Below, one piece after another: positions 6,055 through 31,139 of a stretch of 32,000 nt of DNA. The notes below the pieces were generated by a model. The model searched no databases, was not told where the DNA came from, and saw only the letters and a list, made by a program, of their open reading frames with translations. Both the position numbers and the translations under genes were made by a program. The stretch lies in NCBI RefSeq assembly GCF_000012925.1, contig NC_007517.1, forward strand, positions 630,001 through 662,000. Direction: 5' to 3'. The DNA comes from Geobacter metallireducens GS-15 (GTDB lineage Bacteria; Desulfobacterota; Desulfuromonadia; Geobacterales; Geobacteraceae). Every line of letters begins with the position of its first letter. Within the stretch, counting starts at the first letter, position 1.

Positions 6055-6151
6055 CCGGTAAGGTATGCGCTTCGTACAGGGGGGAGGTGTTTTTGCCCCT
6101 GTACGTCGTAACAAAGTAACGGACTTTCCAGCACTGAACGAGGGAACTTAT

Positions 6152-14874: not shown

Positions 14875-14937
14875 ATGAAAAAGCGCAGCTATGTCAAGCC
14901 GAGGATCGTCGGATCGGCGAATGTTCATCCCTGCTGA
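14875..14937 (+). CDS. 20-codon ORF MKKRSYVKPRIVGSANVHPC; candidate small peptide or RiPP-type precursor
   Basis: Canonical AAGGAG (14861-14866) lies 8 nt upstream of the ATG. The N-terminus is Lys-rich and the C-terminal residue is Cys. TGA at 14935-14937 is followed 24 nt later by a strong intrinsic terminator. The track shows these codons only as the tail of an off-frame 328-aa ORF. Confidence 0.4.
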   Translation: MKKRSYVKPRIVGSANVHPC

Positions 14938-14961
14938 GGCGGAGACCGCAAGGGGAGACAG

Positions 14962-14995
14962 AGGTGGGGCCTGTTCATGGTCCCACCTTTTGTCA
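14962..14995 (+). terminator. Rho-independent terminator closing the cytochrome operon
   Basis: AGGTGGGGCC (14962-14971), 7-nt loop TGTTCAT, then GGTCCCACCT (14979-14988). This is a 10-bp stem with one G.U pair, followed by TTTGTCATTT. Confidence 0.7.
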
Positions 14996-15017
14996 TTTGA
15001 GGGGGTGGGTATTCATG

Positions 15018-15132: not shown

Positions 15133-16167
15133 ATGCTGAACAAATGTTTGTTGCTGACCGGTGCCCTGATTGCCGTGCTGACCGCCCCCCTGGCCGCTCC
15201 GGCCTACGAATACGACCAGGAGCAGACCCGGAAGCTGATCGAGAACATGGTCAGGGACCTCGGCGGGCATGACGGCCTGCGCGCGAACAGCGGTAAAGTC
15301 ATGCGCTGCGTCCATGGCGGCACGAAAAAGGTGACCATCGTTCAAAACGGTGCGCTGACGACCTACAACGGGGTGTACAGCAACTGCCGCGAAAATGATT
15401 CCATCAGGGACGGCATTTACGACATCGCCCTCGAAGGAAATGAAGTCACCGTCAGTTCCTCAAAACGCTCCATCAACGGTGAACTGTTCGATGCCGCCAT
15501 GGGGGGTGACGCGAAAGCCGTCAAAAGATTGGTCAAGGCCAAGGCCGATGTCAATTATACGGAAAGCATCAAGAAAAGCGGCGGCGGTCACATCGACGAG
15601 TGGACGCCGCTCATGTCGGCTGTGGCCTCGGGAAGCCTGGATTCCGTGAAGCAGCTGGTCACCGCGGGGGCCTGGGTCAACTACATGAACAGCATGGCCG
15701 TGAACGCGCTCTGGATCGCCGCCAATAAGGGCGATGTCGCCATCGTTAAATATCTCCTGAAGTCGGGCGCTTATGTCAATAACCGGAACTTCGAGGATGT
15801 CACGCCGCTCATGGCGGCTTCCATGAACGGGCATGGGGAGGTGGTTAAAGCCCTGATCGCCGCCCGGGCAAAGCTCGATTACGTCCACAGCGGGGGTGAT
15901 ACCGCCCTGATGTTCGCCCTGGCAGGCAGGCACACGGCTGTGGCGCGGCTCCTGCTGGCTGCCGGCGCTGATGTGAACGTGAGGAACCGCGACGGACTCA
16001 CGGCCCTGCACATCGCCGTGTCGGAAGGGAATCTGGAGATGGTGCGCGGGCTTCTGAAACGTAAGGCCGATGTGTCGGCCACAATGGACAGCGGCAAGAA
16101 CGCGCTGGATATAGCCCGAGCCAGGGGAAATGCCGCCATCGTGGAACTGCTGGAAAAGGGACGATAA
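15133..16167 (+). CDS. Secreted (periplasmic) ankyrin-repeat protein
   Basis: Sec-type signal peptide MLNKCLLLTGALIAVLTAPLAAPA|YE. After a 110-aa N-terminal domain there are about 7 tandem 33-aa ankyrin repeats (..TPLMSAVASGSLDSVKQLVTAGAWVN.., ..TPLMAASMNGHGEVVKALIAARAKLD.., ..TALHIAVSEGNLEMVRGLLKRKADVS..). GGAG lies 7 nt upstream of the ATG. Confidence 0.9.
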   Translation: MLNKCLLLTGALIAVLTAPLAAPAYEYDQEQTRKLIENMVRDLGGHDGLRANSGKVMRCVHGGTKKVTIVQNGALTTYNGVYSNCRENDSIRDGIYDIALEGNEVTVSSSKRSINGELFDAAMGGDAKAVKRLVKAKADVNYTESIKKSGGGHIDEWTPLMSAVASGSLDSVKQLVTAGAWVNYMNSMAVNALWIAANKGDVAIVKYLLKSGAYVNNRNFEDVTPLMAASMNGHGEVVKALIAARAKLDYVHSGGDTALMFALAGRHTAVARLLLAAGADVNVRNRDGLTALHIAVSEGNLEMVRGLLKRKADVSATMDSGKNALDIARARGNAAIVELLEKGR

Positions 16168-16168
16168 C

Positions 16169-18682
16169 GTGACGAAGCCTCTACGGCCCGGAGTTCAGCT
16201 CCTGCTCTGCCTGATTGCCTATTTCTCCTCCGGTGCGGCGAGCCTCTGTGCGGAAGTTACCTGGAACCGGATGCTCATCGTGGTGGTGGGCAATTCCCTC
16301 GCCGCGACCTCCATGATCGTCGTGGTCTTCATGGGGGGGCTCGGCCTCGGGGGGTATGCCGGCGGGAAGCTCCTGGCGCGCCGCCGGTGCTCGCTGCTTC
16401 CCTACGCGATCCTTGAAGTTCTCATTGCCGCCTACATCCTCCTCTCGCCAATCCTCTTCGACCTCCTTGCCGGTGCCTTCTCCTCCCTGGCCGAGCAGTG
16501 GGAACAGCCGGCGCTGCTGAGCCTGCTGCGGTTTGCCGTCACCGTGGTGGCCCTGTTGATCCCGGCGACCCTCATGGGGGCGACGTTCCCCGCCATCATG
16601 ACCGGGGTGCGATCCAGGTATCCCGAAAACAGCCATGCGCTCCTCTATGGCGTGAACACCGTGGGGGCGGCGGTGGGCTGTTTCGTGGGGGGGTATCATC
16701 TGCTCTTCGAACTGGGGGTTCAGGCAACGCTCTGGCTGGCCGCCGGACTTGGCGGCGTATCAGTCCTCTGTGTGGCCGTGGCAGCGGTTCTGTCTCCGTC
16801 TCGGGCCTGTTTCCAGCTCGCTCCGGAGCCGGAGGTGGCCGACGAAGGCACTTCTGCTTCCGGCGAGGGGGGGCTGTTCCGGTTCCTGGCGGTTTCCTCC
16901 TTCCTAGTTGGGTTTGTGGCCCTTGCCTACGAGGTGCTGGTCACCCGGATGGTGATTCTCTTTCTGAACAATCTGGCATCCACGTTCGCGCTGGCCCTGA
17001 CCGGCTTCCTGCTGGGGACCGGCGCCGGGGCGCTGCTGGCCAACGGCGCCCATGCCGCAAATAACAGGATCGGCGGGAACGGGGTGCGCCTGTTCGGGGC
17101 CATTGCCCTGTTGTCGGGCATCCTGCTAGCTGCGACCCCCTATGCTATCATGGCGGCCAGCTACCCGCTGCAGGCCCTCGGCATCATCGTCATCCCGATG
17201 GTTTTTCTCGGCTCGCTGCTCCCCTTCGCCATCCGGACCCTGCACGCGAGGGATCGCGAAGCCGCGATCCGGGGGACCTCCTTCCTGTACGCCGCCAATA
17301 CGGTCGGCGGGATGCTGGGGGCCGGCCTCATCAATTATCAGCTTCTGCCGAGGATCGGCCTGCAGGGATCGGTCGGGCTCCTGTTCGGCATCTGCGCCGC
17401 CATTGCCGTCGCCTGCTTCGTCCCGTCCCTGACCCGCGGCTTCAGGTGGGCGACCCTGCTGCTGGTTCCGGCGCTCATGCCGCTCATCACGCTGAATGCC
17501 CTGCCGAACATCATGAACCGCTATGCCCTGAAGATCGCCGAGTGGACCGGGGCCCCCGAGGTTACGATCAGGCTTATTCACGAAGGGCGCGCCGCCAACG
17601 TGACGGTGCTCGATCAGAACGATCCGAAGCAGGGGGAATTCCGGGACATGTATCTGAACGGCATCGAGGAGGCGTCGACCCGCTTCTACCACGCCCAGCT
17701 CTTCAAGCTCCTGGGGATGCTTCCGGTTGTCGTCCATGGGGCCGAACGGCCCCAAAACGCCCTCGTCATCGCCTTCGGCTCGGGGATTACCGCCGGGTCG
17801 GTCCTGGCGTCCGATATGATCTCTTCCCTCGATGTGGTCGATCTGAACCCCGATGTGGAGGGGATCAACAATCTGTTCAAGGAATTCAACGGCGACGTGT
17901 TCCACGAGCCCCGCTTCCGCTTTCACAATGACGATGGCAGAAATTATCTGGTGACCAGCGGGAAAAAATACGATCTGATCATCAGCGACTCGACCCACCC
18001 CTGCTCCTACGACAGCTGGATCCTGTACACCCGGGAGTTTTATCGCGATGTGAAGCGGCGCCTCCCCCCGGGCGGCGTCTTTGCCCAGTGGGTCTCCGTC
18101 TCCGAGATCATGCGGGGCGAGCTCTTCCCGATCTATCTGAATACCTTCCGGAGCGTCTTTCCCCATGCGACCTTCTGGTATGTTTACGGGTCGAACCAGG
18201 CCCTGATGCTCGCCACGCCGGAACCGTTCAGGCTCGATGCCGGCAAGCTCCAGAAGCGCCTGGACCGGCTCGCCCCCTGGTTCAGGGCCGGGGAATACCA
18301 GCTCGATTCAGTCGCGAAGGTGGCGGGCTTCTTCTGGCTTGATGAAGAGATGATGGGCCGGATGATCGGCGCCGAGACCCGTGTGAACACGGATATGCGC
18401 CATTATTTCGAGAAGTCCTCCATGCAGGCCCAAATCCCGCCGCAACGGCAGCTTCCCTTTTTCCAGGCCGATGTCACGCGGTATCTCACCGGTGGTGATG
18501 AACGGCTGCGCAGCGACATCCGAAAGGAGCAGAAGACGGGGTTGCTGCTGACCAGGTATGGTTTCTACAACGATATCAGAGACCTTGGCCAAGCTTACTG
18601 TTTAAGTCCTGAGAACAATAACGTAAAATACTGGATGAGATTCGCCTATTCCGGAAATATCCCCGCGGGACTGTGCCCCTAG
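16169..18682 (+). CDS. Fused polytopic membrane (MFS-like) / spermidine-synthase-like (class I SAM-dependent fold) protein
   Basis: The N-terminal ~450 aa consist of hydrophobic helices. The C-terminal part carries a SpeE-like core: ALVIAFGSGITAG..VDLNPDV..FHNDDGRNYL..KYDLIISDSTHP (compare the DxIIxDSxDP motif of aminopropyltransferases). A GTG at 16169 immediately follows the ankyrin gene TAA; the track start at 16130 overlaps that gene. Confidence 0.75.
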   Translation: MTKPLRPGVQLLLCLIAYFSSGAASLCAEVTWNRMLIVVVGNSLAATSMIVVVFMGGLGLGGYAGGKLLARRRCSLLPYAILEVLIAAYILLSPILFDLLAGAFSSLAEQWEQPALLSLLRFAVTVVALLIPATLMGATFPAIMTGVRSRYPENSHALLYGVNTVGAAVGCFVGGYHLLFELGVQATLWLAAGLGGVSVLCVAVAAVLSPSRACFQLAPEPEVADEGTSASGEGGLFRFLAVSSFLVGFVALAYEVLVTRMVILFLNNLASTFALALTGFLLGTGAGALLANGAHAANNRIGGNGVRLFGAIALLSGILLAATPYAIMAASYPLQALGIIVIPMVFLGSLLPFAIRTLHARDREAAIRGTSFLYAANTVGGMLGAGLINYQLLPRIGLQGSVGLLFGICAAIAVACFVPSLTRGFRWATLLLVPALMPLITLNALPNIMNRYALKIAEWTGAPEVTIRLIHEGRAANVTVLDQNDPKQGEFRDMYLNGIEEASTRFYHAQLFKLLGMLPVVVHGAERPQNALVIAFGSGITAGSVLASDMISSLDVVDLNPDVEGINNLFKEFNGDVFHEPRFRFHNDDGRNYLVTSGKKYDLIISDSTHPCSYDSWILYTREFYRDVKRRLPPGGVFAQWVSVSEIMRGELFPIYLNTFRSVFPHATFWYVYGSNQALMLATPEPFRLDAGKLQKRLDRLAPWFRAGEYQLDSVAKVAGFFWLDEEMMGRMIGAETRVNTDMRHYFEKSSMQAQIPPQRQLPFFQADVTRYLTGGDERLRSDIRKEQKTGLLLTRYGFYNDIRDLGQAYCLSPENNNVKYWMRFAYSGNIPAGLCP

Positions 18683-18684
18683 AC

Positions 18685-20325
18685 ATGCCATTCTTTTTGG
18701 GTGAGCCGAAAAAATACGCGAAGCACGCCGCAGGCATTGCCGCAGCATGGGCCGCGCTTATCTGCCTGGCGGTGTACCTGCGGGCCCTTGGCTGCGATTT
18801 CATCAATTTTGACGATCCGTACTACGTGATCGACAATCCCGGCATCAGGATCCTTGACCGGCAGTTCATCCGGGAGGCATTCACCACCTCCTACCTGGGG
18901 TGGTGGATGCCGCTCACCTGGGCCTCCTTTGCCATCGACTACCATTTCTGGGGGCTCGATCCGCTCGGGTATCACCTGACCAATATCGTGCTCCACGCCC
19001 TGAATGCCGGCCTGGTGGTGCTGGTCGCGGACCGGCTGCTGCGGCGGTGGCAGGGGGAATGGTCCGGGGGGGGGACGAGCTTCCTGTACCCGGCGGTACT
19101 GCTGCTGGCCGGGCTGTTGTGGGGGATTCATCCGCTGCGGGTGGAGTCGGTGGCCTGGGTGACGGAGCGCAAGGACGTGCTCAACGGCGTTTTCGCGCTC
19201 GGCTCGATCTTTTCCTACCTCTGCTACGCTGACCGCGAGGACAACGGGCGCAAGGGTGCCCGGTCCGCCTATGCGGTTTCCCTGCTGTTTTTCCTGCTCT
19301 CGCTCATGGCCAAGCCGGTCAGCGTGGTTATCCCGGCGATGCTGCTGGTACTGGACTGGTACCCGCTGGGGCGTTTGTCGCGCGAAAATGCCGTGAAAAG
19401 GGTCGCCGAAAAACTGCCGTTTTTCGCGCTGGCTCTGGCGGTGGTTGCCGCCACTATAACCCTTGCCAGCGGGGAGTCGATCCTGGTCTCGTTTCATGTT
19501 TTTCCGCTGTACAAGCGCATCATCCTTGCCGGCAGCTCGTTGTTTGCCTATCTCCGCATGGCCGTCTTCCCGGTGGGGCTGGTGAACCTCTACCTGCTTC
19601 CCCGTGTGTTCCCCGCGTCCTATTACCTGGCCGCTCTCGGGATTCTTGCCCTGACCTGCTTCTGCTTCTTTGGCTGGAAGCGCCGGCCGGGGCTGCTGGC
19701 CGCCTGGTTGCTCTTTGTCCTTCCGCTGGCGCCGGTCCTCGGGTTTCTCCAGAACGGCTCCCAGGCCTATGCGGACCGCTTCACCTATCTTCCCGGCGTG
19801 GCCCTGAGCATTGGTGGCGCCGGTCTGCTGGGGGGGATGGTTTCCCGCTGTCGTGGCCGGTCGCGTCAACTGGTCGTGGCGTTAGCCGTGGCGGCGACTA
19901 TCCTCTGCGGCACCGTTTCGTATCACCTGATCGGCGCCTGGAAGAATCCGGAGACGCTCTGGTCGCGGGTGATCGCCGTCGAGCCGATCGGCAGGGCATT
20001 CTATCTCCGGGCGGACTACCGGCAGCAGAAGGGGCGCTACCTGGAGGCGGCGGCCGATCTGGCCGACTCCATCGCCATTGGGGAGCGGGACGGTTTCCCG
20101 GGGGTGTTCAACCTGCATGCCATGCGGGGCGATGCCCTCAACCGGGCCGGGCGTTATGGGGATGCGGTGCGCGAATTCACCACCGCCATCAATCTGAAGC
20201 CAGTTCCGGAGTATTTCTACCATCGGGGAACCGCGCTCATGGCCCTTGGGCGCGGGGAGGAGGCAGCGGCGGATTTTCGGGAGGCCGGCGATGCAACCGG
20301 GCCCATTGCGTGGGAGGTGTATTGA
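18685..20325 (+). CDS. GT-C fold, PMT_2/TMTC-like membrane glycosyltransferase with C-terminal TPR repeats, copy 1
   Basis: TM1 is followed by an acidic loop (LGCDFINFDDPYYVIDNP). It also has HPLRVESVAWVTERKDVL and about 10 TM helices, then TPR-like helices (..YRQQKGRYLEAAADLADSIAI..GRYGDAVREFTTAINLKP..). The ATG at 18685 is 2 nt after the upstream TAG; a GTG at 18673 is an alternative start. Confidence 0.75.
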   Translation: MPFFLGEPKKYAKHAAGIAAAWAALICLAVYLRALGCDFINFDDPYYVIDNPGIRILDRQFIREAFTTSYLGWWMPLTWASFAIDYHFWGLDPLGYHLTNIVLHALNAGLVVLVADRLLRRWQGEWSGGGTSFLYPAVLLLAGLLWGIHPLRVESVAWVTERKDVLNGVFALGSIFSYLCYADREDNGRKGARSAYAVSLLFFLLSLMAKPVSVVIPAMLLVLDWYPLGRLSRENAVKRVAEKLPFFALALAVVAATITLASGESILVSFHVFPLYKRIILAGSSLFAYLRMAVFPVGLVNLYLLPRVFPASYYLAALGILALTCFCFFGWKRRPGLLAAWLLFVLPLAPVLGFLQNGSQAYADRFTYLPGVALSIGGAGLLGGMVSRCRGRSRQLVVALAVAATILCGTVSYHLIGAWKNPETLWSRVIAVEPIGRAFYLRADYRQQKGRYLEAAADLADSIAIGERDGFPGVFNLHAMRGDALNRAGRYGDAVREFTTAINLKPVPEYFYHRGTALMALGRGEEAAADFREAGDATGPIAWEVY

Positions 20326-20372
20326 GCCATGGAATGCGCTCCCGCCATAGCGTTGGCTGACGGTAGGGTCGG

Positions 20373-21593
20373 ATGAACTGGAAGCTTATCCGCATCATCG
20401 ATGTCTGGCTGGGGATCCCGATACTTTTCGGGATTTTTGTTGCCGGGCGGCTCTTCGGGAAGCGGCAGCCGCAGCGGCCGGCCACGGTCAGGCGCATCCT
20501 GCTGATCAAGTTCTGGGGGATCGGCAATCTTTTCATGATGCTCCCGTCGGTTCAGGCGCTGCGTGCGGCCCACCCGGCAGCCGCCATCGATGTTCTCTCG
20601 CTGGACAGCAACCGGGATGCCATCCGGGCCTGCGGCGTGTTTGACGGCGTCGCCACCATAACCACCGCCGGTCCGCTCCGCTTCCTGTTATCGTGGCGGC
20701 GGGCCGTCGCCCTGCTGAGAAGGAACCGCTACGACATCATCATCGACTTCGAGCAGTTCGCGCGGTTTTCCGCGCTGGTTGCCGGCCAGATCGGGGCCGC
20801 GGAAATTATCGGGTTCCGGACCGAGGGACAGCATCGGAGCCTCAATTTCACCGTTCAGGTCCCGTACGACAATGCGATCCATGTCACGCGTTCCTTCCAT
20901 GCCCTCGTTGCGGCTGCCGGAGCGGCACCGGTTGATCGCCTGCCGGCGGCCGGGATCAGCGGCAGCGAAAATCTGCGCGAACGCGGCAAGGAACTGCTCG
21001 CGCAAATCGGAATCGGGCCGGATGAGCTCTGCGTCGTCATGCATGCCGGCACCAGTGGCAATTTCAGTGAGCGCCGCTGGCCGCCCGAACGGTTTTCCTC
21101 CCTTGCCGATACGCTTCATGCCGGGCACAATGCCCGCACCATCTTCACCGGAGCGGCTGAAGAGGCCTTTCTGACCCGTGAAGCGGCAAGGCATCTGCAC
21201 CGGCCGTTGTCCGCCCTAGATCTGGGGGGAAAGCTGAAATTCCGGGACTACCTCGCCCTCATCGCGGCTGCCGATCTGGTGGTTTCGGCCGACACGGCGG
21301 CCGTGCACATGGCATCGGCGGTCGGAACACCGGTGGTCGGGCTGTACGGTCCCAACACGCCACGCCTCTACGGCCCGTGGGGAAGGGGGGGCGTGGCCGT
21401 CTGTCAGGGACTTGACTGTAGCCCCTGCATCACCAACTTCAACGCCAAGCTCCATGTCTGTCGCCACCCCGCGGGACGGGGGGCCTGCATGGGGGCCATC
21501 GGGGTGGAAGATGTGGCGGCTGCCATCCGGCGGAATTTCCTGGAGCCGGATGCCCCGTTTCTGCTCACCAGGCTCTCCGGGGGTATGCGGTGA
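20373..21593 (+). CDS. Glycosyltransferase family 9 (heptosyltransferase-like)
   Basis: N-terminal ILLIKFWGIGNLFMMLPSVQALRAAHPAAAIDVL and C-terminal LIAAADLVVSADTAAVHMASAVGTPVVGLYGP both match the GT9 pattern (..IxxSxxGD..P..; ..NDSGPMHLAAAxGxPxVxLFGP). Confidence 0.8.
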   Translation: MNWKLIRIIDVWLGIPILFGIFVAGRLFGKRQPQRPATVRRILLIKFWGIGNLFMMLPSVQALRAAHPAAAIDVLSLDSNRDAIRACGVFDGVATITTAGPLRFLLSWRRAVALLRRNRYDIIIDFEQFARFSALVAGQIGAAEIIGFRTEGQHRSLNFTVQVPYDNAIHVTRSFHALVAAAGAAPVDRLPAAGISGSENLRERGKELLAQIGIGPDELCVVMHAGTSGNFSERRWPPERFSSLADTLHAGHNARTIFTGAAEEAFLTREAARHLHRPLSALDLGGKLKFRDYLALIAAADLVVSADTAAVHMASAVGTPVVGLYGPNTPRLYGPWGRGGVAVCQGLDCSPCITNFNAKLHVCRHPAGRGACMGAIGVEDVAAAIRRNFLEPDAPFLLTRLSGGMR

Positions 21594-22645
21594 TGCGCTT
21601 CCCGCGGCTGGCATACCGGGTTCTGCGGAGCAACCTGGGGGACCTTCCGGAGCCGTACCGGATGACCTGGGGGGTCACCAGCCGTTGCCAGGCCCGCTGC
21701 GCCATGTGCAACATCTGGCGCCGGCCGGCCGGAGATGAGCTTTCCCTCTCCGAGATCGACCGGTTCCTGGCCCGTTCGAACCGGTTCTCGTGGATCAACC
21801 TGACCGGCGGAGAGATCTTCCTCCGCGACGATATCGACGGGATTCTCGATGTCATCGACCGGCACTGCCGGCAGCTCTGCCTGCTCAACTTCCCCACCAA
21901 CGGCCATGACAGCGACCGGATCGTGGCGGTGGTGCGGGCGTTTCTCGCCAGGATGTCGGTGCCGCGCCTGATGGTTTCGGTCAGCCTCGATGGTCCCCCC
22001 GAACTCCATGACCGGATCCGGGGGGTGGACGGTTCGTGGGAACGGGCCGTGGCAACCTTCCGCCGCTTGCGGGAACTGCGGTCCCGGCGCTTTTCGGTGT
22101 TTCTCGGCTACACCGTGCAGGAAGCCAATCTGGACGGGTTCGACGGCATGCTCCAGGCGGTCAGGCGGGAGGTGGAAGTGACGGATGACGAGCTCCACGT
22201 CAATGTGGCCCATGTTTCCGGGCTCTATTACGATAATGCCACCTTTTCGGGACTGCCGGCTCCGGAGGAGACCTGCCGCCTTCTGGACCGGATCAGCGCG
22301 TCGCGCCGGAGCGGGGTAATGAGTCCGGTCTCGTTCCTCGAACGCCGCTACCAATCCCTGGTCCGTCCGTATCTGGAGCGAGGGACTACGCCGCTTGCCT
22401 GTCAGGCGGCTGCCGCCTCCTGTTACGTCGATCCGGGCGGCACCGTCTATCCCTGCACCGGTTTTGACGCCCCGGTCGGCTCCCTCAGGGAATGGGGGTA
22501 TGATCTGGGGCGGCTCTGGCGCAGCCCACGGCGCCACGAGGTCAGGCAGGCAGTTCGGGATGGGGCCTGTCCGGGATGCTGGACACCCTGCGAGGCATAC
22601 CAGACCATCATGGCGAACCTGTTTGCTGGAGGCGGCAAAGGGTGA
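21593..22645 (+). CDS. Radical SAM enzyme with C-terminal SPASM/twitch-like Cys cluster, copy 1
   Basis: CX3CX2C motif (SRCQARCAMCNIW), GGE motif (NLTGGEIFL), and a C-terminal cluster CQAAAASCYVDPGGTVYPC...CPGCWTPC. The ATG at 21593 overlaps the GT9 TGA (TGATG); a GTG at 21590 is an alternative start. Confidence 0.85.
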   Translation: MRFPRLAYRVLRSNLGDLPEPYRMTWGVTSRCQARCAMCNIWRRPAGDELSLSEIDRFLARSNRFSWINLTGGEIFLRDDIDGILDVIDRHCRQLCLLNFPTNGHDSDRIVAVVRAFLARMSVPRLMVSVSLDGPPELHDRIRGVDGSWERAVATFRRLRELRSRRFSVFLGYTVQEANLDGFDGMLQAVRREVEVTDDELHVNVAHVSGLYYDNATFSGLPAPEETCRLLDRISASRRSGVMSPVSFLERRYQSLVRPYLERGTTPLACQAAAASCYVDPGGTVYPCTGFDAPVGSLREWGYDLGRLWRSPRRHEVRQAVRDGACPGCWTPCEAYQTIMANLFAGGGKG

Positions 22646-23775
22646 TGATCAGGAAGGTCTATCACGATTTCCTGCTGGCGAAGCTGAAGCAGGATGGGGT
22701 GGGGTGGCTTGCCCGGCGGGCGCGCCAGTACCTGCTGCTGCACCTCTCGCCGCTTGCCGGGCGAGCCCTGTGCGGCCCGGTTCACGGAAGCCTCATGGTC
22801 ACCCGCCGCTGTAACTGCGACTGCACCATGTGCGACATCCCCTCGAAGCGCCGGGAATCAGCTGGCACCGGGGGCGACGAGCTGGACACCGCACGCCTCA
22901 AGGAGATCATCGGGGAGTTTGCCCGCCTGGGAACGCCGGGCCTCGGCTTTACCGGCGGCGAGCCGCTGCTCCGCCCGGACATCTACGAACTGCTGGCCTG
23001 CTCCCGGCACAACGGCATGATTACCCATCTCAACACCAACGGTTATTTTCTCGACGACACGGCGGCGCGGTGTATCGTCGATGCCGGGGTGGAATCGGTC
23101 AATATCTCGCTGGACGGGGCCTCTCCGGCGACCCACGACCGGATCAGGAACTGCGGCGGCGCCTTCGAGCGGGCCACGGCGGCTGTGGAGCGCCTGCACC
23201 GGCTGCGCCGGGAGCGGGGAGTGCCGCTGCGCATCAAGATGGTGGCGGTCCTCAGTGAAGCCAACATCGACGAGGCCGGGGATCTGGCGGAACTTTCCCG
23301 CGAACTCGGCGCCGACTGCATCGAGTTCATTCCGTGCCAGCCGCTCACTGGCAATGGGGGTGACAAAGCGACGCCCGATGAGTCCTTCATGAAAAAAGTC
23401 GACCGGCTGGTGGAGTATCTGCTCGCAATGGGCCGGGAGCGGGGGATGGTCGAAAATTCTCCCGCCCACCTGCGGCTGTTCCGGTCATCGGTCGCCGGTG
23501 TCCCGTCTCCGGTGCGCTGCCGGGCAGGGTACCATTCCCTGTTGGTGGACTGCCATGGGGACGTGTTCCCCTGTTTTCCCCGGATGAGCTGGGGCCGGCG
23601 GGCCGGCAATGTCAGGCATGGCAGCCTTGTGGATCTGTGGCGTTCCGATGGGTACCAGACCCATCGCGATATCGCGTCCGCGTGCCGGGACTGTTATCTG
23701 AACTGTCATCTGGAACTGAATCTCTTGTTCGACCACAAAGCGCGGGGGCGATTCCGACGCGGGAGCGAGCGGTGA
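22645..23775 (+). CDS. Radical SAM enzyme with C-terminal SPASM/twitch-like Cys cluster, copy 2
   Basis: CX3CX2C motif (RRCNCDCTMCDIP), GFTGGEPLL, VNISLDGASPATHDRIR, and a C-terminal cluster CRAGYHSLLVDCHGDVFPC...CRDCYLNC. The ATG at 22645 overlaps the upstream TGA (TGATG). Confidence 0.85.
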   Translation: MIRKVYHDFLLAKLKQDGVGWLARRARQYLLLHLSPLAGRALCGPVHGSLMVTRRCNCDCTMCDIPSKRRESAGTGGDELDTARLKEIIGEFARLGTPGLGFTGGEPLLRPDIYELLACSRHNGMITHLNTNGYFLDDTAARCIVDAGVESVNISLDGASPATHDRIRNCGGAFERATAAVERLHRLRRERGVPLRIKMVAVLSEANIDEAGDLAELSRELGADCIEFIPCQPLTGNGGDKATPDESFMKKVDRLVEYLLAMGRERGMVENSPAHLRLFRSSVAGVPSPVRCRAGYHSLLVDCHGDVFPCFPRMSWGRRAGNVRHGSLVDLWRSDGYQTHRDIASACRDCYLNCHLELNLLFDHKARGRFRRGSER

Positions 23776-25613
23776 ATTTCTTTTCTCTGAAACGGGAACA
23801 GGCGCTGGATTTCGTCTGCCTTGCGGTGGTGGTCCTGGCTGTGTATGGGAGAGCCCTTGGCCATGATTTCCAGACCAACTGGGATGACAACTGGTATGTG
23901 CTCTATAACGAAGCCGTGCGCGGTTTTTCATGGGACCATATCCGCAGCGCATTCACCGGTTACTTCGGCGGATATTACGCCCCGGTGCAGGTCGTTTCGT
24001 ACATGCTTGACTATTCGCTCTGGGGGCTCTGGCCCGGCGGCTTCATCCTGACGAACATCCTGCTGCACCTGCTGAACGGGCTCCTGATCTACCGGTTGCT
24101 CCTCGGTTGGTACGGGCAGCGTCTGGTTGCTCTGGTGGCATCGGCAATTTTCCTGGTTCATCCGGTCCAGGTCGAGGCCGTTGCCTGGATCTCCCAGAGA
24201 AAATCACTCCTGGCCCTGCTCTTCTTCCTGATCGCCTGGAAACAGTACTGCCGCTATCGCCTGGCCCCGACAGGGAGAGGACGATGGAGCTATGGGGCAT
24301 CCTGCGGCGCGTTCCTGTTATCGTTGCTGGCCAAGCCGACCACGGTGGTCCTTCCCGTAATCCTGGTGCTGTACGACCACTGCTTTGCCGATGGGGACCG
24401 ACGGTCCCGGTATGCGGACAAGGTTCCCTACGTGCTGCTGGCCGGCATTTTTTCTGCCCTGACCCTCTATACCCAGTCGCCGGAGGTGGCGGAAGGTGGC
24501 CGCACCGCCTACCACGGCGGGAGTCCCCTGGGGACGCTCTACACGATGCTCCCCGTGTTCTGCCGTTATCTGGAAATGCTGGTCTGGCCCGCCGGCCTCA
24601 GTGCCGCCTATGCTCCCCCGATCCGGCAGGCCGTTGACGCCACAGTGGTCCTGTCGGCCCTCCTCCTTGCCGGCATCGCCGTGGCCTCGGTCCGGCTGTA
24701 TCGGGTCGACCGGCGGCTCGCCTTCTGGGTCCTCTTTTTCTGGGTCGGGCTCCTGCCGGTTTCCCAGATCGTGCCGGTCATCTCGCTGCTGTACGACCAC
24801 TATCTCTATCTCCCAATCATCGGCGCGGCCGCCTTGGCCGGATCGGGCGGGGCACTGCTGTGGGAGCGCCTGGCACCGGAGCGCCGTTTCCTGCTCTATG
24901 CGGTTGTGCTGCCGGTGCTGGCGGCCCTTTCCGTGGCCTCTTTTCAGCGGACCGGCGTCTGGAAGAATTCCCTGACCCTCTGGAGCGATGCCGTTGCCAA
25001 GGAACCGGGGAGCGATCTGGCATGGCAGATCCTGGGTGGATCGCTATTGGACGTTGGCAGGATTGCGGAGGCCAGGGAGGCTTATCAGCGGGGCTTTGCG
25101 CTCAATCGGTCAAATACGGAGATCCTCCATGCCCTGGGGCAGATTGCCACCAACACGGGGGAGCTTGACCAGGGATACCGGATGCTGAAGAGGCTCCTGG
25201 AGCTGAAGCCCGATTACGTCTCCGGCTGGGCCAGTCTTGGCACCAATTACATGAAACGGGGCGACTACGGGGAGGCTGAAAGGGCATACCAGCGCGCACA
25301 CTCTTTGCAACCGGAGGCGTGGCAGGTGGTGTCCTTGCTGGGGAATCTGGCGCTGACCCGGGGGCGCCTGGAAGAGGCCCGCGGATACTTCGTGCAGGTG
25401 GAGGCACAGGCGCCGGGGGACGCCGCCAATGCCTATGCCCTGGCGAGCGTCGAGGCCCTGTCGGGCAATGCCGATGCCGGCCTCGCCTGGCTGGAGAAGG
25501 CCGTGCAGCGGGGGTACGACGACTTCGGACGGATGTACGACGATCCGCGGCTGTCGGCCCTGCGGGACAGCCCGCGCTTCGACCGCCTGGTGCGGAACAA
25601 TGCTGGAAGATAG
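23772..25613 (+). CDS. GT-C fold, PMT_2/TMTC-like membrane glycosyltransferase with C-terminal TPR repeats, copy 2 (paralog of 18685..20325)
   Basis: Motifs are collinear with copy 1: LGHDFQTNWDDNWYVLYN, HPVQVEAVAWISQRKSLL, LLSLLAKPTTVVLPVILVLYDH. At least 5 TPR-like repeats follow (..GRIAEAREAYQRGFALN.., ..GDYGEAERAYQRAHSLQP..). The GTG at 23772 overlaps the upstream TGA (GTGA); the track start at 23637 lies inside the radical SAM gene. Confidence 0.8.
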   Translation: MNFFSLKREQALDFVCLAVVVLAVYGRALGHDFQTNWDDNWYVLYNEAVRGFSWDHIRSAFTGYFGGYYAPVQVVSYMLDYSLWGLWPGGFILTNILLHLLNGLLIYRLLLGWYGQRLVALVASAIFLVHPVQVEAVAWISQRKSLLALLFFLIAWKQYCRYRLAPTGRGRWSYGASCGAFLLSLLAKPTTVVLPVILVLYDHCFADGDRRSRYADKVPYVLLAGIFSALTLYTQSPEVAEGGRTAYHGGSPLGTLYTMLPVFCRYLEMLVWPAGLSAAYAPPIRQAVDATVVLSALLLAGIAVASVRLYRVDRRLAFWVLFFWVGLLPVSQIVPVISLLYDHYLYLPIIGAAALAGSGGALLWERLAPERRFLLYAVVLPVLAALSVASFQRTGVWKNSLTLWSDAVAKEPGSDLAWQILGGSLLDVGRIAEAREAYQRGFALNRSNTEILHALGQIATNTGELDQGYRMLKRLLELKPDYVSGWASLGTNYMKRGDYGEAERAYQRAHSLQPEAWQVVSLLGNLALTRGRLEEARGYFVQVEAQAPGDAANAYALASVEALSGNADAGLAWLEKAVQRGYDDFGRMYDDPRLSALRDSPRFDRLVRNNAGR

Positions 25614-25691
25614 GATGCTTGTGACGATGATACGTGGTGCCGGATGGCGATGCGATGAGCCCTGTTATTTATCCTTGGCGGATTTCGAATC

Positions 25692-26372
25692 ATGAAACTG
25701 TCGGTGGTGATGCCGGTTTACAACGAGAAGGCAACCCTTCGTGCCATCTATGAACAGGTGGCGGCGGTGACGATCGACAAGGAGATAATTCTTGTGGATG
25801 ACTGCTCCACCGACGGCACCCGGGAGATCGTCAGGGAACTGGGTGCCACTGGGGCCACGGTGGTTCTCCATGACCGGAACATGGGGAAGGGGGCTGCCTT
25901 GAGGAGCGGCTTCCGGCATGTTACGGGGGACGTGGTTCTCATTCAGGATGCCGATCTTGAGTACGATCCGGGACAGTACCCGCTGCTGATCCAGCCGATT
26001 CTGAACGGCGAGGTCGATGTGGTCTATGGCTCCCGGTTCCTCTCCGGGGAACGCAGCCTCGGCATGTCGTTCTGGAACAGGGCCGGGAACAGGATACTGA
26101 CATATCTTTCCAACACGCTGACAAAACTGGAGCTGACCGACGTCGAAACCTGTTACAAGGTCTTCAGCAGGGACGTCCTGGAGCGGATCACCATAGAAGA
26201 GAACCGGTTCGGCTGTGAACCGGAGATCACCGCAAAGCTGGCGAAACTGGGGGTGAGAATACGTGAGGTCGGGATATCATATCGCGGCAGAACATCCGCC
26301 GAGGGGAAGAAAATCGGCTGGAGGGATTTCATTTCGTCGGTGAGATGCATAGCCAAGTATACTTTGACGTGA
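25692..26372 (+). CDS. Glycosyltransferase family 2, DPM1/ArnC-like polyprenyl-phosphate sugar synthase
   Basis: MKLSVVMPVYNEKATL..IILVDDCSTDGT..VVLIQDADLEYDP.. contains the classic GT2-A DxD/DAD motifs. At 226 aa it is a short soluble form, like dolichyl- or undecaprenyl-phosphate glycosyltransferases. Confidence 0.85.
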   Translation: MKLSVVMPVYNEKATLRAIYEQVAAVTIDKEIILVDDCSTDGTREIVRELGATGATVVLHDRNMGKGAALRSGFRHVTGDVVLIQDADLEYDPGQYPLLIQPILNGEVDVVYGSRFLSGERSLGMSFWNRAGNRILTYLSNTLTKLELTDVETCYKVFSRDVLERITIEENRFGCEPEITAKLAKLGVRIREVGISYRGRTSAEGKKIGWRDFISSVRCIAKYTLT

Positions 26373-26424: not shown

Positions 26425-27216
26425 GTGAGTTGCTTGAAGAACAAAATGATCGGCTTTTTCCTGATGGTGTTTTTCTGCTCGATACAGGCAGTTTTTGCCG
26501 CGGATGACACCGGAACCATCACCGGCAAATGGATCACCAAGGAGTACGGCCCCATGACTGACGCGCAGGTGCTGCTGTTCAACGTGGCCAAGGGTCCTCC
26601 TCCGGCAGGCCACAAGTATCTGCGCACCCCCGATATGGGAACCCCCGTCGACCAGGAGGGGGGATTCCGGGTGCAGGCCCCTGCCGGCAGGTACTACCTG
26701 GTCATGCTTAAACGGGTGGACCCCAACAGCGCCGGCCCTCCCCGGGAAGGGGATCCGCAGTATTACGCCCGGGACAAGAAGGGGAAACCGAAGGAGTTCG
26801 TGGTGAAGGCCGGAAAAACCACGAATATCGGCACCATCACCGAGGCGGTCCCCTACCGGAAAGGGGTGGCCGCCGTCAAGGACGGCACGACCGGTATCGA
26901 AGGGACCGTAACCGACAAACAGGGGCAACCCGTGGCCGGTATCCGCGTCTTTGCCTACGAAGCCGCGGAAATGCAAGGGATGCCGCGTTATGCCTCCAAC
27001 GAGACCGGTGCGGACGGGAAGTATGTGCTGGTCCTTACCGGGAAGGGGACCTATTTCCTCAAGGCCCGTACCCATTATGGCGGCGGGAAGCCGGCAGAGG
27101 GCGAATTCCTGGGTGCTTACGGTTCCGGCCCCGTTGTCGTTGATGGCGGGCAACTCCGGCAGGGCATCGATATCCAGGTCACCAGATTCAGTACGCAGCA
27201 ACGCAAGCAGCAATGA
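26425..27216 (+). CDS. Secreted protein with two CarboxypepD_reg/transthyretin-like beta-sandwich modules
   Basis: Signal peptide ..MIGFFLMVFFCSIQAVFA|AD. The modules include ITGKW..DAQVLLFN..EGGFRVQAPAGRYYLVML and IEGTVTDKQGQPVAGIRVFAYE..TGADGKYVLVLTGKGTYFLKA. The start is ambiguous (GTG 26425, TTG 26434 or ATG 26446). Confidence 0.7.
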   Translation: MSCLKNKMIGFFLMVFFCSIQAVFAADDTGTITGKWITKEYGPMTDAQVLLFNVAKGPPPAGHKYLRTPDMGTPVDQEGGFRVQAPAGRYYLVMLKRVDPNSAGPPREGDPQYYARDKKGKPKEFVVKAGKTTNIGTITEAVPYRKGVAAVKDGTTGIEGTVTDKQGQPVAGIRVFAYEAAEMQGMPRYASNETGADGKYVLVLTGKGTYFLKARTHYGGGKPAEGEFLGAYGSGPVVVDGGQLRQGIDIQVTRFSTQQRKQQ

Positions 27217-29272: not shown

Positions 29273-30592
29273 ATGCTCAAGCGTTTCTTCCTTTCCCGAA
29301 AAACCGTTATATCCCTTATTCTTCTCATGCTCGGGGCGATTCTCCTGGGGTACTCGTTCCCGCAACGCTTCCTTACCTCGCCTCCGGAGCTGGACAAGTG
29401 GCAGCTGGCCAATCCGGCCCTGGCAAAACTGTCGCGGGTGCTGGCCCTCGACCATGTCTATACATCACCCTGGTTCGCGGTGCTGCTCGTGCTGTTCCTC
29501 GTTTCGCTCTGCTTCTCCACCTGGGAGCAGTTCCGGCTTGCTCTCCGGAAGAGCCGGGAGGGGGGCGCGGGAGGAGAATCCTTTGAATCTGCCGCCGGCG
29601 CCGCCGAGCTTGCCGCGGGCCTTCGCTCCCTGGGCTATCTGAGGATGGGGGGGCGGGACGGCGCCACCCGGTTTGTCCGCCATCCGTGGGGCTATTGGGG
29701 CAACTTCCTCCTCCACCTGGGGATCGTCGTCTCCATTGCCTCGTCGCTGGTGATCCTTCTCTATGAGAAACGGGCGGTGATCGATCTGCTCGAAGGGGAA
29801 GTGCACAAACCCGGCGCGGACTGGATCAAGGAGGAGCGGGGCCTGCTGGCCGGCAAGCTGGTTCTCCCCGATGCGGTGCGCCTCGACCGGGTTGTGCCGG
29901 AATACTACGACAACGACAACATGCGGCAGCTTACCACCGACTTCAGTTTTGTCGACGCTGCCGGCCGGCCGACGCCGTTGTCGATGCACATCAATAAATC
30001 GATACGGTACAAGGGTGTGCGGATTTTCCAGGGGAAGTCCTACGGCAGGGCATTTTTCGTGAAGTTCACGGGACAGGACGGCCAGGAGCACGGCGAGGTT
30101 TTCTCCCTCGACCAGCCAACTGACCGAAATACTGCCTCATACAAGGATTTTGTCCTCCCCTGGCTGCCGAGCGCACTCAAAACCAAATATTACGGGGATG
30201 CCGACCGGCGTTCCCTTGACGGGAGCAACCCCCTCTTCGTGATGCGCCTCATGGAGGGCGGAAAGGCTGTCGCGGAGCTTCCCCTGAAGGTGGGGGAGAC
30301 GGGGCGCTTGGGCGGCTACACGGCCCAGTTGGTCAAGGTGGAGCGCTGGGGGGGGTTGATTTTTATCGACACCACGGGCATGGCGGGAATTTTCCTCGGA
30401 TTCTTCATCGTCTGCCTGGGCGGGTCGCTGAGCTATTTCTGCCCCCCCCGGGAGTGCTCCCTTTCTCCCTCAGGGGAAGGGTGCCGGCTCTCCTGGCGGG
30501 CAACGCGCTTTGAACGGCTCTACCGCGACGAGTTTGACTATCTCCGCCGGCTGGCGGGGTTGCCCGTTGCGACGGATGAGCGGAATGTTTGA
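29273..30592 (+). CDS. ccsB: ResB/CcsB (Ccs1)-family cytochrome c biogenesis protein, copy 2
   Basis: Same architecture as copy 1: ..KTVISLILLMLGAILLGYSFPQRF.., ..YTSPWFAVLLVLFLVSLCFS.., ..NFLLHLGIVVSIASS.., a large soluble domain and a C-terminal TM (GIFLGFFIVCLGGSL). It is divergent from copy 1 in sequence. Confidence 0.8.
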   Translation: MLKRFFLSRKTVISLILLMLGAILLGYSFPQRFLTSPPELDKWQLANPALAKLSRVLALDHVYTSPWFAVLLVLFLVSLCFSTWEQFRLALRKSREGGAGGESFESAAGAAELAAGLRSLGYLRMGGRDGATRFVRHPWGYWGNFLLHLGIVVSIASSLVILLYEKRAVIDLLEGEVHKPGADWIKEERGLLAGKLVLPDAVRLDRVVPEYYDNDNMRQLTTDFSFVDAAGRPTPLSMHINKSIRYKGVRIFQGKSYGRAFFVKFTGQDGQEHGEVFSLDQPTDRNTASYKDFVLPWLPSALKTKYYGDADRRSLDGSNPLFVMRLMEGGKAVAELPLKVGETGRLGGYTAQLVKVERWGGLIFIDTTGMAGIFLGFFIVCLGGSLSYFCPPRECSLSPSGEGCRLSWRATRFERLYRDEFDYLRRLAGLPVATDERNV

Positions 30593-30620: not shown

Positions 30621-31139
30621 ATGATCAAAAAGAGTATTGCCTTGCTTTTGCTGGCCGTTGCGACGGCTTCCTGCAGCAGCGTCGATACGCGGGAAGCGGA
30701 GCAGGTGCGGGAGACGGTGAAACGCTACAACACCCAATTGGCCCAGGGGTACGCGACCATGAACATGGGTGGGCTGGCCCGGGTGGCCGAGGAGCCCCAG
30801 ACTGCCAAGGTCTACTTCCACATGGCGGCCCTGGGCGAGGGGCGGATCAGGATGATGTCGGAGCTCAAGGACATATCCTTCAAGGATATCCGTTTCGCCG
30901 CCGCCACCTCCGCCTCGGTGAAGACCCGGGAGGTCTGGGATTTCCGGCATGTGAACATCGATACCGGGAAAGTGGAGCGGGACGAGAAGGGGTTTGTCTA
31001 CCGGACGAACTACCATCTCGCCAAGAAGAACGGCGCCTGGTGGGTCAGGGATGTTGCCGCGGAGGGCGAGAAGGGGAAAGGCGCCGACACGAAGGCTTCC
31101 CCGGCCGCGCCGGCTTCCGGGAAGGCTTCCGTGCGGTAG
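30621..31139 (+). CDS. Small lipoprotein of unknown function (172 aa)
   Basis: MIKKSIALLLLAVATAS-C is a lipoprotein-type signal (permissive lipobox). GGGGAG lies about 9 nt upstream of the ATG at 30621. The track start at 30510 would overlap ccsB copy 2 by 83 nt. The mature part has alpha+beta character and a Lys/Ala/Pro-rich tail. Confidence 0.65.
   Translation: MIKKSIALLLLAVATASCSSVDTREAEQVRETVKRYNTQLAQGYATMNMGGLARVAEEPQTAKVYFHMAALGEGRIRMMSELKDISFKDIRFAAATSASVKTREVWDFRHVNIDTGKVERDEKGFVYRTNYHLAKKNGAWWVRDVAAEGEKGKGADTKASPAAPASGKASVR

Follow-up and report, generated by a model that had tools for sequence, protein, structure and literature searches.

A candidate lipid-linked glycosylation module with paralogous GT-C/TPR proteins beside the omcN cytochrome gene of Geobacter metallireducens

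The pilin O-arabinofuranosyltransferase TfpW of Pseudomonas aeruginosa Pa5196/PA7 is a protein of 646 amino acids with 11 transmembrane (TM) helices, a periplasmic tetratricopeptide repeat (TPR) domain and an essential DDX motif, for which ArnT is the best structural template and polyprenyl-phosphate-arabinose the donor. The eukaryotic TMTCs likewise have ArnT as their closest structural relative. In Geobacter, cryo-electron microscopy has revealed surface glycosylation, seen as glycan-like densities, on the filaments of the cytochromes OmcS and OmcE; these glycans have been argued to insulate the wires and to affect their bundling, and the papers found do not name the glycosylation enzyme responsible. 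A preprint (bioRxiv 10.1101/2025.10.22.684050) has linked the glycosylation of OmcE to adjacent GT2, GT4 and GT39 genes and TPR-domain proteins, and it names no enzyme–acceptor pair. The present work concerns a stretch of 32,000 nucleotides of the Geobacter metallireducens GS-15 genome (NC_007517.1, positions 630,001 to 662,000), referred to as a whole as “the window”, in which the genes Gmet_0584 to Gmet_0589 lie downstream of omcN (Gmet_0581), the gene of a giant multihaem cytochrome. It is tentatively proposed, with a confidence that falls somewhat short of even, that these genes encode a polyprenyl-phosphate-sugar (“three-component”) extracytoplasmic glycosylation module, the acceptors of which would most likely be Ser/Thr residues of the neighbouring secreted proteins.

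The paralogues Gmet_0584 and Gmet_0588, 30% identical over 534 amino acids (E 8e-36), have in common an acidic motif in loop 1 and a TPR domain at the C-terminus, the latter detected in both proteins with Pfam. The acidic pair lies within the motifs INFDDPYY and TNWDDNWY, one in each paralogue; it corresponds to D47-D48 of Gmet_0584 and D38-D39 of Gmet_0588, and no member departs from it in the two family alignments, of 56 and of 30 sequences. Further invariant positions, in the numbering of Gmet_0588, are H130-P131, E135, W139, R143, K188 and Y266-x6-P273, and P282 is nearly so. The helix count obtained from the AlphaFold2 model with DSSP and from a hydropathy scan allows for 11 TM helices, as against the 12 of the public annotation of Gmet_0584. 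Neither protein contains the WW[DE] motif (WWDxG) of STT3, PglB and AglB, and the C-terminal domain is TPR.

The fold of the membrane domain was approached through structure prediction. Full-length searches, using either the family profile against the PDB or a Foldseek search of the full-length AlphaFold model of Gmet_0588 (predicted local distance difference test, pLDDT, 91.8), were uninformative about the catalytic domain, since they were swamped by TPR proteins, and residues 1–402 of Gmet_0588 were for this reason modelled alone. The AlphaFold2 model of this segment (pLDDT 92, predicted template modelling score, pTM, 0.92) retrieved only GT-C enzymes among its top 20 Foldseek matches in the PDB, with ArnT (5f15) first and AglB, STT3, Pmt4, PglB, EmbA/B, AftA, Pmt1/2 and DPY19 among the others, at probabilities of 0.96–1.00 (at least 0.98 for the top 19) and with TMq up to 0.58. 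A phmmer search of the Gmet_0584 membrane domain against the PDB sequences gave no match. One homologue, at locus L052 and 42% identical to Gmet_0588, exceeds the threshold of the Pfam family PMT_2 (PF13231; 32.1 vs 26.1 bits), and another, at L055, falls just under the cutoff of PMT (PF02366; 20.3 vs 22.7 bits), so that the sequence link of the two window proteins to the PMT clan would be transitive only, by way of homologues. DUF1736 (PF08409), which covers the TM7–TM8 loop of the TMTCs, has no match in either window protein and is matched by one of 30 homologues, at E 0.052. Taken from the AlphaFold model, the Foldseek matches and the one homologue that matches PMT_2, a GT-C-fold membrane domain is predicted for both Gmet_0584 and Gmet_0588. 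The family to which they belong is large, with more than 700 matches at E ≤ 1e-5 in a search limited to 8000 candidates; most of these are annotated only as “TPR protein”, Gmet_0588 itself is annotated as a “TPR_2 repeat protein”, and a literature search on Geobacter, mannosyltransferase, TPR and cytochrome found no paper characterising the GT-C/TPR family there.

The TPR domain of Gmet_0588 also matches OGT, MamA and PilW. The part of it encoded at 25120–25450 scores above the gathering threshold of PF23914 (TPR_CcmH_CycH, the apocytochrome-binding TPR of System I) at 45.8 vs 42 bits, which is probably a generic cross-match between TPR families.

The second component, Gmet_0589, is to judge from its relatives a GT2 glycosyltransferase of the polyprenyl-phosphate-sugar synthase type, in agreement with the initial annotation of this DNA, which had described it as DPM1/ArnC-like. 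The protein matches Pfam Glycos_transf_2 (E 4.5e-35) and carries a DxD motif, D86-A-D88. Its closest solved relatives are all polyprenyl-phosphate-sugar synthases, namely the DPMS of Pyrococcus furiosus (5mlz, E 1.2e-19), ArnC (about 1e-14) and GtrB (6e-8), and it is 28% identical to the ArnC of Escherichia coli (E 9e-19). It lies under every NCBIfam equivalog cutoff (AglJ, DPM synthase, PpgS, ArnC), the best being AglJ with 123.5 bits vs 325, and a TM scan predicts no TM helix in it.

The genomic context of these genes was examined by a scan of a genome collection which yielded 76 loci centred on homologues, identified here by L numbers; the window proteins were mapped onto the loci by tblastn, the called genes were read for three of them, and all fractions of 56 given in this text refer to those loci that span at least 15 kb and have a GT-C/TPR homologue at their centre. 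A GT2 like Gmet_0589 occurs within 10 kb in 32/56 loci, orthologues of Gmet_0589 (64–70% identity) adjoin GT-C/TPR arrays in Geomonas, Citrifermentans, Geomobilimonas and others, and two to seven copies of the GT-C/TPR gene are found in 37/56. On this comparative evidence the pairing of GT2 with GT-C/TPR is a real, recurrent unit. Gmet_0585, Gmet_0586/0587 and the two GT-Cs form in addition a conserved five-gene core in the order GTC1–GT9–rSAM–rSAM–GTC2 (GTC1 and GTC2 stand for Gmet_0584 and Gmet_0588 and their orthologues, and rSAM for radical S-adenosylmethionine), which recurs at about 55–68% identity in L002/L077, L004, L005 and L009. At L006 and L007 the GT9 gene, both rSAM genes and GT-C/TPR genes are present at similar identity, and a close GTC1 orthologue is absent (28–30%). 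In Geobacter sp. AOG1 (L077, 1–21752) the core is flanked by giant multihaem cytochromes of 2049 and 1471 amino acids and by an NHL protein, encoded on the opposite strand; a B12-radical-SAM gene and more TPR proteins follow the core there.

The association of the module with omcN extends to other genomes as well. The closest relative (L001/L080) has the full string omcN–micro-ORF–ank–SpdS-like–GTC1–GT9–rSAM–rSAM–GTC2–GT2–cpd, where the micro-ORF is a 20-codon open reading frame (ORF), ank is the ankyrin-repeat gene, SpdS-like denotes Gmet_0583 with its spermidine-synthase-like domain, and cpd denotes the CarboxypepD_reg genes. At L080 the module is followed by unrelated genes on the opposite strand, and resB/ccsA are absent downstream. 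The full string is also found at L012, where the GT2 gene has moved and follows ank, ahead of the SpdS-like gene. A shortened form, omcN–ank–…–epimerase–GT2′–GTC2–cpd1, occurs at L010/L078, at L003 and in G. hydrogenophilus (L011); the last of these retains GTC2–cpd1–resB–lipoprotein–ccsA, with resB–lipoprotein–ccsA at 77–91% identity. Altogether an OmcN-like gene, the micro-ORF, ank and GT-C/TPR, together with GT2 and CarboxypepD_reg in some cases, occur in shuffled orders in about eight genomes (the window, L001/L080, L003, L010/L078, L011, L012, L016 and L017). The linkage of the module to OmcN-type cytochromes, ank and CarboxypepD_reg outlives the rearrangement of gene order across genera, which would argue for function over mere inheritance. 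The connection with giant cytochromes that had been suggested for this locus from the outset is circumstantial, and it is this co-occurrence that speaks for it.

Other members of the family have other neighbours. At L039 (9956–21257) a GT-C/TPR paralogue lies between purH and purD, directly 5′ of purE–resB–ccsA–two multihaem cytochromes–NHL propeller–small cytochrome, an order that is the layout of the OmcE-type clusters in the 2025 preprint; the spacing from GT-C to ccsA is shared by L035, L037, L038, L046 and L052, and the paralogues are 42–46% identical to Gmet_0588. Elsewhere the arrays hold a YfhO-like protein, an S-adenosylmethionine methyltransferase, a carbamoyltransferase, a B12-radical-SAM gene or a PMT_2-positive GT-C, and the modification genes in the L056 and L024 arrays (Table 1) suggest elaborate modified glycans. 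Arrays of this kind sit among sugar-modifying genes without cytochromes, so that the GT-C/TPR family, taken in its entirety, is not specific to cytochromes.

In the proposed mechanism, Gmet_0589 would move a monosaccharide from a nucleotide sugar onto undecaprenyl phosphate at the cytoplasmic face of the membrane. The lipid-linked sugar would be flipped into the periplasm, a step for which Gmet_0583 is a flippase candidate only by elimination; no GtrA or ArnE/F homologue was found in the window. Gmet_0584 and Gmet_0588 would then pass the sugar to acceptors in the periplasm, with catalysis depending on the invariant Asp-Asp of loop 1 and with the putatively periplasmic TPR domains choosing the acceptors. 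The first candidate acceptor would be the Ser/Thr-rich OmcN-type giant cytochrome Gmet_0581, and the second candidates the Ig-like CarboxypepD_reg proteins Gmet_0590/0591, in a parallel to the action of TfpW on pilin or of the TMTCs on cadherin domains. For the GT9 protein and the two rSAM/SPASM enzymes a part in elaborating the glycan or in modifying the acceptor is probable. Protein O-glycosylation of the TfpW/TMTC-like kind is the best guess for the function of the module, and it is favoured on the strength of the analogy with these enzymes and of the secreted nature of the proteins that recur as neighbours.

The composition of the two cytochromes agrees with the earlier description of them as Ser/Thr/Asn-rich. 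Gmet_0580 has 14 CXXCH, one CX3CH and six CX4CH haem motifs, the Pfam domains GSu_C4xC__C2xCH, Cytochrome_C7 and MtrC/F, and a content of 21% Ser plus Thr; the Asn content of the cytochromes is 8–9%. Gmet_0581 has 34 haem motifs, the first of them at residue 1184. Residues 1–1183 (6065–9613) are haem-free and contain 17–27% Ser plus Thr per block of 200 amino acids; a Pfam scan of the N-terminal 1178 amino acids gave no match, and the haem region of OmcN appears from its sequence to be preceded by a very large uncharacterised surface domain. The number of N-x-S/T sequons in Gmet_0580, which the initial annotation had put at about 22 and judged to be mildly in excess, is 23 compared with a shuffle mean of 16.0–16.2 (869 or 873 amino acids, for the two choices of start; p = 0.03–0.04), and in OmcN it is 53 compared with 44 (p = 0.08). 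The count and the mild excess thus stand, and the argument drawn from them is beside the point, since the WWD motif of STT3/PglB is absent from both GT-Cs; the reading of these sequons as N-glycosylation sites was rejected on that ground, the excess being marginal in any case.

The layout of the genes is summarized in Table 1. The locus tags (Gmet_0578 to Gmet_0594 for the window) were assigned by means of the 613-amino acid protein, which is 100% identical to a G. metallireducens protein, the haem counts and the gene tables of Aklujkar 2009 (PMC2700814, Table S5) and Holmes 2022 (PMC10989804). All genes from ank to the second ccsA are co-directional, with intergenic gaps of 47, 78, 52, 56, 28 and 63 nucleotides and six overlaps of 38, 10, 4, 1, 4 and 4 nucleotides. 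The gaps of 80 nucleotides or less and the absence of a detectable terminator that had been reported for the string from ank to the second ccsB are thus confirmed, and the number of overlaps is corrected from four to six. No intergenic terminator was detected on the + strand between 15133 and 31139, where every terminator-like match is weak (5–7 bp) and lies inside a gene. The sole strong hairpin (12 bp) is located 5′ of ank and 3′ of omcN and the micro-ORF. It overlaps a second possible hairpin at 14982–15009, the two being mutually exclusive, and the pair at 14960–15009 may simply mark the end of an operon or may attenuate the downstream ank operon. Because the strong hairpin lies between them and ank, the cytochrome genes probably form a transcription unit apart from the ank operon, perhaps with read-through. 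From the arrangement of the genes we infer that ank through the second ccsA are co-transcribed. Gmet_0571–0601 have been described as ten co-directional operons, rich in cytochromes, with possible read-through (Aklujkar 2009, PMC2700814). In transcriptomes of direct interspecies electron transfer (DIET), published as supplementary expression tables, Gmet_0582, 0583, 0584, 0586 and 0589 shift together by 1.7–2.5-fold, which is weak evidence compatible with a single transcript; the genes Gmet_0582–0589 were found in the literature only in such supplementary tables and not in the main texts.

Table 1. Features of the window, and related features at comparison loci (coordinates preceded by an L number refer to the locus concerned)
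Feature	Coordinates	Strand	Basis
Partial ORF	2–733		No match in Pfam scan
Gmet_0578/0579, ResB/CcsA	815–2958	+	
Gmet_0580, 21-haem c-type cytochrome, candidate acceptor, separate upstream transcription unit (probable)	3433–6054	+	Haem motifs, Pfam
Gmet_0581 (omcN), 2912 amino acids, 34-haem cytochrome, main candidate acceptor	6065–14803	+	Haem motifs
Micro-ORF, 20 codons, MKKRSYVKPRIVGSANVHPC, last gene of the omcN unit	14875–14937	+	Ribosome-binding site GAAAGGAG, conservation
Intrinsic-terminator-like hairpin, 12 bp stem, T-rich tail	14960–14990	+	Between omcN unit and ank operon
Gmet_0582 (ank), putatively periplasmic ankyrin-repeat protein, signal-peptide-like N-terminus, first in the co-directional string	15133–16167	+	Pfam Ank_2, E 4e-42
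Gmet_0583, domain of about 13 TM helices fused to spermidine-synthase-like domain	16130–18682	+	NF037959, Pfam Spermine_synth, TM scan
Gmet_0584, GT-C/TPR paralogue 1 (other ATG start: 18685)	18673–20325	+	Paralogy to Gmet_0588, DD 47–48, TPR
Gmet_0585, divergent GT9 (heptosyltransferase-family) glycosyltransferase	20373–21593	+	Pfam Glyco_transf_9, E 5.7e-33
Gmet_0586, radical SAM/SPASM enzyme	21590–22645	+	Pfam Radical_SAM and SPASM
Gmet_0587, radical SAM/SPASM enzyme	22645–23775	+	Pfam Radical_SAM, E 7.6e-24, and SPASM
Gmet_0588, GT-C/TPR paralogue 2, 613 amino acids	23772–25613	+	AlphaFold2 model, Foldseek, invariant residues
Gmet_0589, soluble GT2, polyprenyl-phosphate-sugar synthase type	25692–26372	+	Pfam, PDB relatives, ArnC identity, no TM helix
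Gmet_0590, secreted CarboxypepD_reg (Ig-like beta-sandwich) protein, alternative candidate acceptor	26425–27216	+	Pfam, E 1.6e-10
Gmet_0591, secreted, two CarboxypepD_reg domains and right-handed beta-helix	27213–29216	+	Pfam CarboxypepD_reg 1.9e-19, Beta_helix 1.4e-6
Gmet_0592, ResB/CcsB copy (System II cytochrome c biogenesis)	29273–30592	+	Pfam ResB, E 4e-22
Gmet_0593, small putative lipoprotein between resB and ccsA	30621–31139	+	Lipobox-like N-terminus MIKKSIALLLLAVATASC
Gmet_0594, CcsA/ResC copy, runs past the window end	31203–32000	+	Translation contains WGRFWGWDPIETW
Copies of the micro-ORF	L001:1013, L003:5821, L010:3613, L011:4761, L012:255, L016:196, L017:21230		
Sugar-modifying/array genes	L056:4691–7066, L056:11960–12901, L024:567–2081, L024:3909–5771, L024:19394–21127		

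The remaining genes of the module and its surroundings can be described more briefly. Gmet_0583, the one remaining polytopic membrane protein of the operon, matches NCBIfam NF037959 (“fused MFS/spermidine synthase”) with 83 bits vs a cutoff of 40; its role in the context of glycosylation might be that of a flippase, that of a transferase for aminopropyl or methyl groups, or a different one altogether. Fusions of about 13 TM helices with a spermidine-synthase-like domain recur beside GT-C/TPR arrays in 10/56 loci, and weaker paralogues of Gmet_0583 are found at L014, L032, L033, L040, L043, L056, L060 and L064. The GT9 gene and the two rSAM/SPASM genes had been left out of the initial annotation. 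Gmet_0585 stays below all the NCBIfam heptosyltransferase equivalog cutoffs (WaaC/WaaF/WaaQ; 81–90 bits vs 135–185) and reaches only the level of the Pfam family, Gmet_0586 reaches no NCBIfam equivalog, and the start of Gmet_0587 was picked to fit an orthologue of 376 amino acids. Orthologues of ank (47–64% identity) adjoin GT-C/TPR genes in 10/56 loci, and those of Gmet_0590 (52–70% identity) come after GTC2 at L001, L003, L010, L011 and L012. Gmet_0593 has no family match in Pfam and NCBIfam scans; its N-terminus is lipobox-like (…LAVATASC), it is 87% identical in G. hydrogenophilus, and it has been paired with GSU0703, the neighbour of a different resB/resC pair, GSU0704–0705 (Table S5, PMC2700814). 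Gmet_0594 is 91% identical at L011.

The micro-ORF MKKRSYVKPRIVGSANVHPC, with its conserved ribosome-binding site GAAAGGAG, is present 3′ of omcN-like genes in the window and in seven further genomes. Substitutions in it are distributed over codon positions 3/1/2 in the ratio 59/21/8, which indicates that the peptide itself is under selection. It is probably Gmet_3649/GSU2897, and an NCBIfam scan of the micro-peptide gave no match. The idea that it is a substrate of the rSAM/SPASM enzymes was set aside, since the peptide is kept at loci that have no rSAM gene (L003, L011, L016, L017) and since loci with the rSAM pair that lack omcN also lack the peptide.

Several observations weigh against the proposal that the module glycosylates its secreted neighbours. 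No Pfam GT-C model, be it PMT, PMT_2, DUF1736 or another, has a match in either membrane domain, even at E ≤ 10, so that of the original description of the two proteins as paralogous PMT_2/TMTC-like enzymes the paralogy, the DD loop, the TPR domains and, by AlphaFold2 and Foldseek, the GT-C fold are upheld and the assignment to these Pfam families is not; nor was an hhalign comparison of the family profile with the ArnT of E. coli significant (probability 0.6%, E 0.1). TPR domains also scaffold polysaccharide export, as in BcsC and PgaA; the NCBIfam matches to these two are weak and sub-threshold. Between omcN and the module there is a strong terminator-like hairpin. ORFs with at least 8 haems are present in 24/56 loci and ORFs with at least 20 haems in 10/56, and these are raw counts over loci that are phylogenetically related. 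Many GT-C/TPR arrays lie in loci without cytochromes, beside a carbamoyltransferase, a methyltransferase or a YfhO-like gene. Finally, G. sulfurreducens has omcN, GSU2897, the ankyrin gene and resB/ccsA, and “none” is recorded for its orthologues of Gmet_0583–0591 (Table S5, PMC2700814); its OmcN is 63% identical to Gmet_0581, so the module is not needed to make OmcN.

The most serious of the rival explanations, which we regard as possible though on balance unlikely, is that what the module modifies or assembles is not a protein; it would be a glycan of the periplasm or envelope (the lipid A/lipooligosaccharide core, a lipoglycan or an exopolysaccharide), an alternative already named in the initial annotation as ArnT-like modification of lipid A or another envelope glycan, with one polyprenyl-phosphate-sugar synthase feeding several GT-Cs each of which makes a different linkage. 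Such an arrangement has parallels in Ppm1 with MptA/B/C or Emb, in ArnC/ArnT, in GtrB/GtrC and in CsbB/YfhO, and it would fit the arrays in which one or two GT2s accompany as many as 7 GT-C paralogues, the GT9 heptosyltransferase-family gene within the core, the YfhO-like gene, carbamoyltransferase and methyltransferase of other arrays, and the position of lptF/lptG, which adjoin the module on the opposite strand at L080. The Y-x6-P-x8-P motif of the Gmet_0588 family is shared with the polymerising Emb enzymes and with TfpW, and the best structural match is ArnT. The same template, however, comes first for enzymes with protein substrates, namely TfpW and the TMTCs, and the characterised GT-Cs with a C-terminal TPR (TfpW, TMTC1–4) act on proteins. 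The window, moreover, contains no ArnA/B/D/E/F, Wzx/Wzy or polysaccharide-export gene, and the recurrent neighbours of the module (the OmcN-like cytochrome, the ankyrin protein and the CarboxypepD_reg protein) are secreted.

Even if proteins are the acceptors, they might be pilins, flagellins or other envelope proteins unrelated to cytochromes, in which case Gmet_0583–0591 would be an indel and its adjacency to omcN meaningless. This is considered improbable. Gmet_0583–0591 do lack orthologues in G. sulfurreducens, where both flanks are conserved; in about half of the GT-C/TPR loci a large cytochrome is missing from the vicinity, and a chance adjacency is likely in a region such as Gmet_0571–0601, whose ten co-directional operons are packed with cytochromes. 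The association of omcN-like gene, micro-ORF and ank with the module is nevertheless kept across genera in reordered form (L012, L016, L017, L078), the AOG1 core lies between other giant cytochromes, and a linkage that is kept despite rearrangement is hard to explain by inheritance alone. Least probable of all, and in our estimation very unlikely, is a mechanistic coupling of glycosylation to haem attachment, in which the TPRs would bind unfolded apocytochromes in the periplasm in the manner of CcmI/CycH and the GT-Cs would glycosylate them during haem ligation by ResB/CcsA (Gmet_0592/0594), supplied from the same transcript. The terminator-free string from ank to the second ccsA, the PF23914 score of the Gmet_0588 TPR, the retention of GTC2–cpd1–resB–lipoprotein–ccsA in G. 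hydrogenophilus, and the presence in six genomes of a GT-C/TPR paralogue 2.5–5 kb 5′ of a different resB/ccsA pair all point towards such a coupling. It is countered by L080, which has the full module and no resB/ccsA, by G. sulfurreducens, in which the reverse holds, by the genes that intervene at L078, and by the readiness with which TPR families cross-match; the hairpin at 14960–14990, furthermore, isolates the cytochrome genes. The functional link to the haem lyase that had been suggested initially is accordingly not supported, and by comparison of loci the connection of the module with resB/ccsA is lineage-specific and no part of the mechanism.

A bolder version of the proposed protein O-glycosylation, which must be considered doubtful, would be that the TPR-bearing GT-C family of the Geobacterales, with up to 7 tandem copies per locus, comprises the missing O-glycosyltransferases of extracellular multihaem cytochromes, with dedicated paralogues beside each cytochrome cluster (OmcN-type here, OmcE-type elsewhere) acting on unfolded periplasmic apocytochromes around System II haem ligation, and that the ankyrin protein, the GT9/twin radical-SAM core and the 20-amino acid micro-peptide would belong to an undescribed cytochrome-specific maturation pathway. 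Deletion of the gene of the 34-haem OmcN-type cytochrome impaired the establishment of DIET co-cultures with Methanosarcina subterranea (PMC10989804). Gmet_0584, 0588 and 0589 are a defined three-gene set beside omcN, which makes the question of cytochrome glycosylation directly testable, and G. sulfurreducens, which is without orthologues of the module, could serve as a test host. If the acceptor should prove to be a glycan, the family would still be a large bacterial GT-C/TPR group for which no characterisation was found in the literature searched.

When the locus is set beside the known systems, TfpW appears from its published description to be the closest characterised bacterial enzyme to Gmet_0584 and Gmet_0588. 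The Gmet_0588 family shares with it the acidic DD(X) motif in the first loop, the C-terminal TPR and the predicted ArnT-like fold, and the spacing of the proline motif is the same (Y-x6-P-F-x7-P in TfpW and Y266-x6-P273-x8-P282 in the Gmet_0588 family), with F after the first proline in TfpW and A or V in the Gmet_0588 family. The gene of TfpW lies directly 3′ of pilA, the gene of its acceptor, whereas no pilin gene is among the genes of the window, and unlike TfpW the G. metallireducens module has two paralogues that bracket a GT9 gene and two radical-SAM/SPASM genes. With TMTC1–4 (GT105) and PMT/POMT (GT39) the module has in common the GT-C domain with DD in loop 1, a DPM1-type GT2 and multiple paralogues, and in the TMTCs the luminal TPRs follow the GT-C membrane domain in the same order as in Gmet_0584 and Gmet_0588; these two proteins differ in having no DUF1736, PMT or PMT_2 match and no MIR domain, and in their setting, which would be the bacterial periplasm.

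The enzymatic logic of the module is already known. In ArnC/ArnT, GtrA/B/C, CsbB/GtcA/YfhO and Ppm1 a GT2 loads undecaprenyl phosphate with a sugar, which after flipping is handed on by a GT-C on the extracytoplasmic side, a logic that the G. metallireducens module would share. Systems of the ArnC/Gtr/CsbB/Ppm1 type modify lipid A, O-antigen, teichoic acids and lipoglycans, and their GT-Cs are without TPR; Gmet_0589 differs from ArnC and GtrB in having no C-terminal TM helices, and of the arn context the window has the ArnC-like GT2 only, without ArnA/B/D/E/F. Cytochrome clusters with their own glycosylation genes have likewise been published already, in 2025, for OmcE. Those clusters, located 3′ of OmcE nanowire genes in Geobacter and Geomonas, belong to another locus (the Gmet_2901/2900 side) and to another cytochrome family than the omcN module, which adds to their composition the Ank protein, the spermidine-synthase-like membrane protein, GT9, the two rSAM/SPASM genes and CarboxypepD_reg. 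The omcN locus would thus represent a second, differently composed example of cytochrome-linked glycosylation genes.

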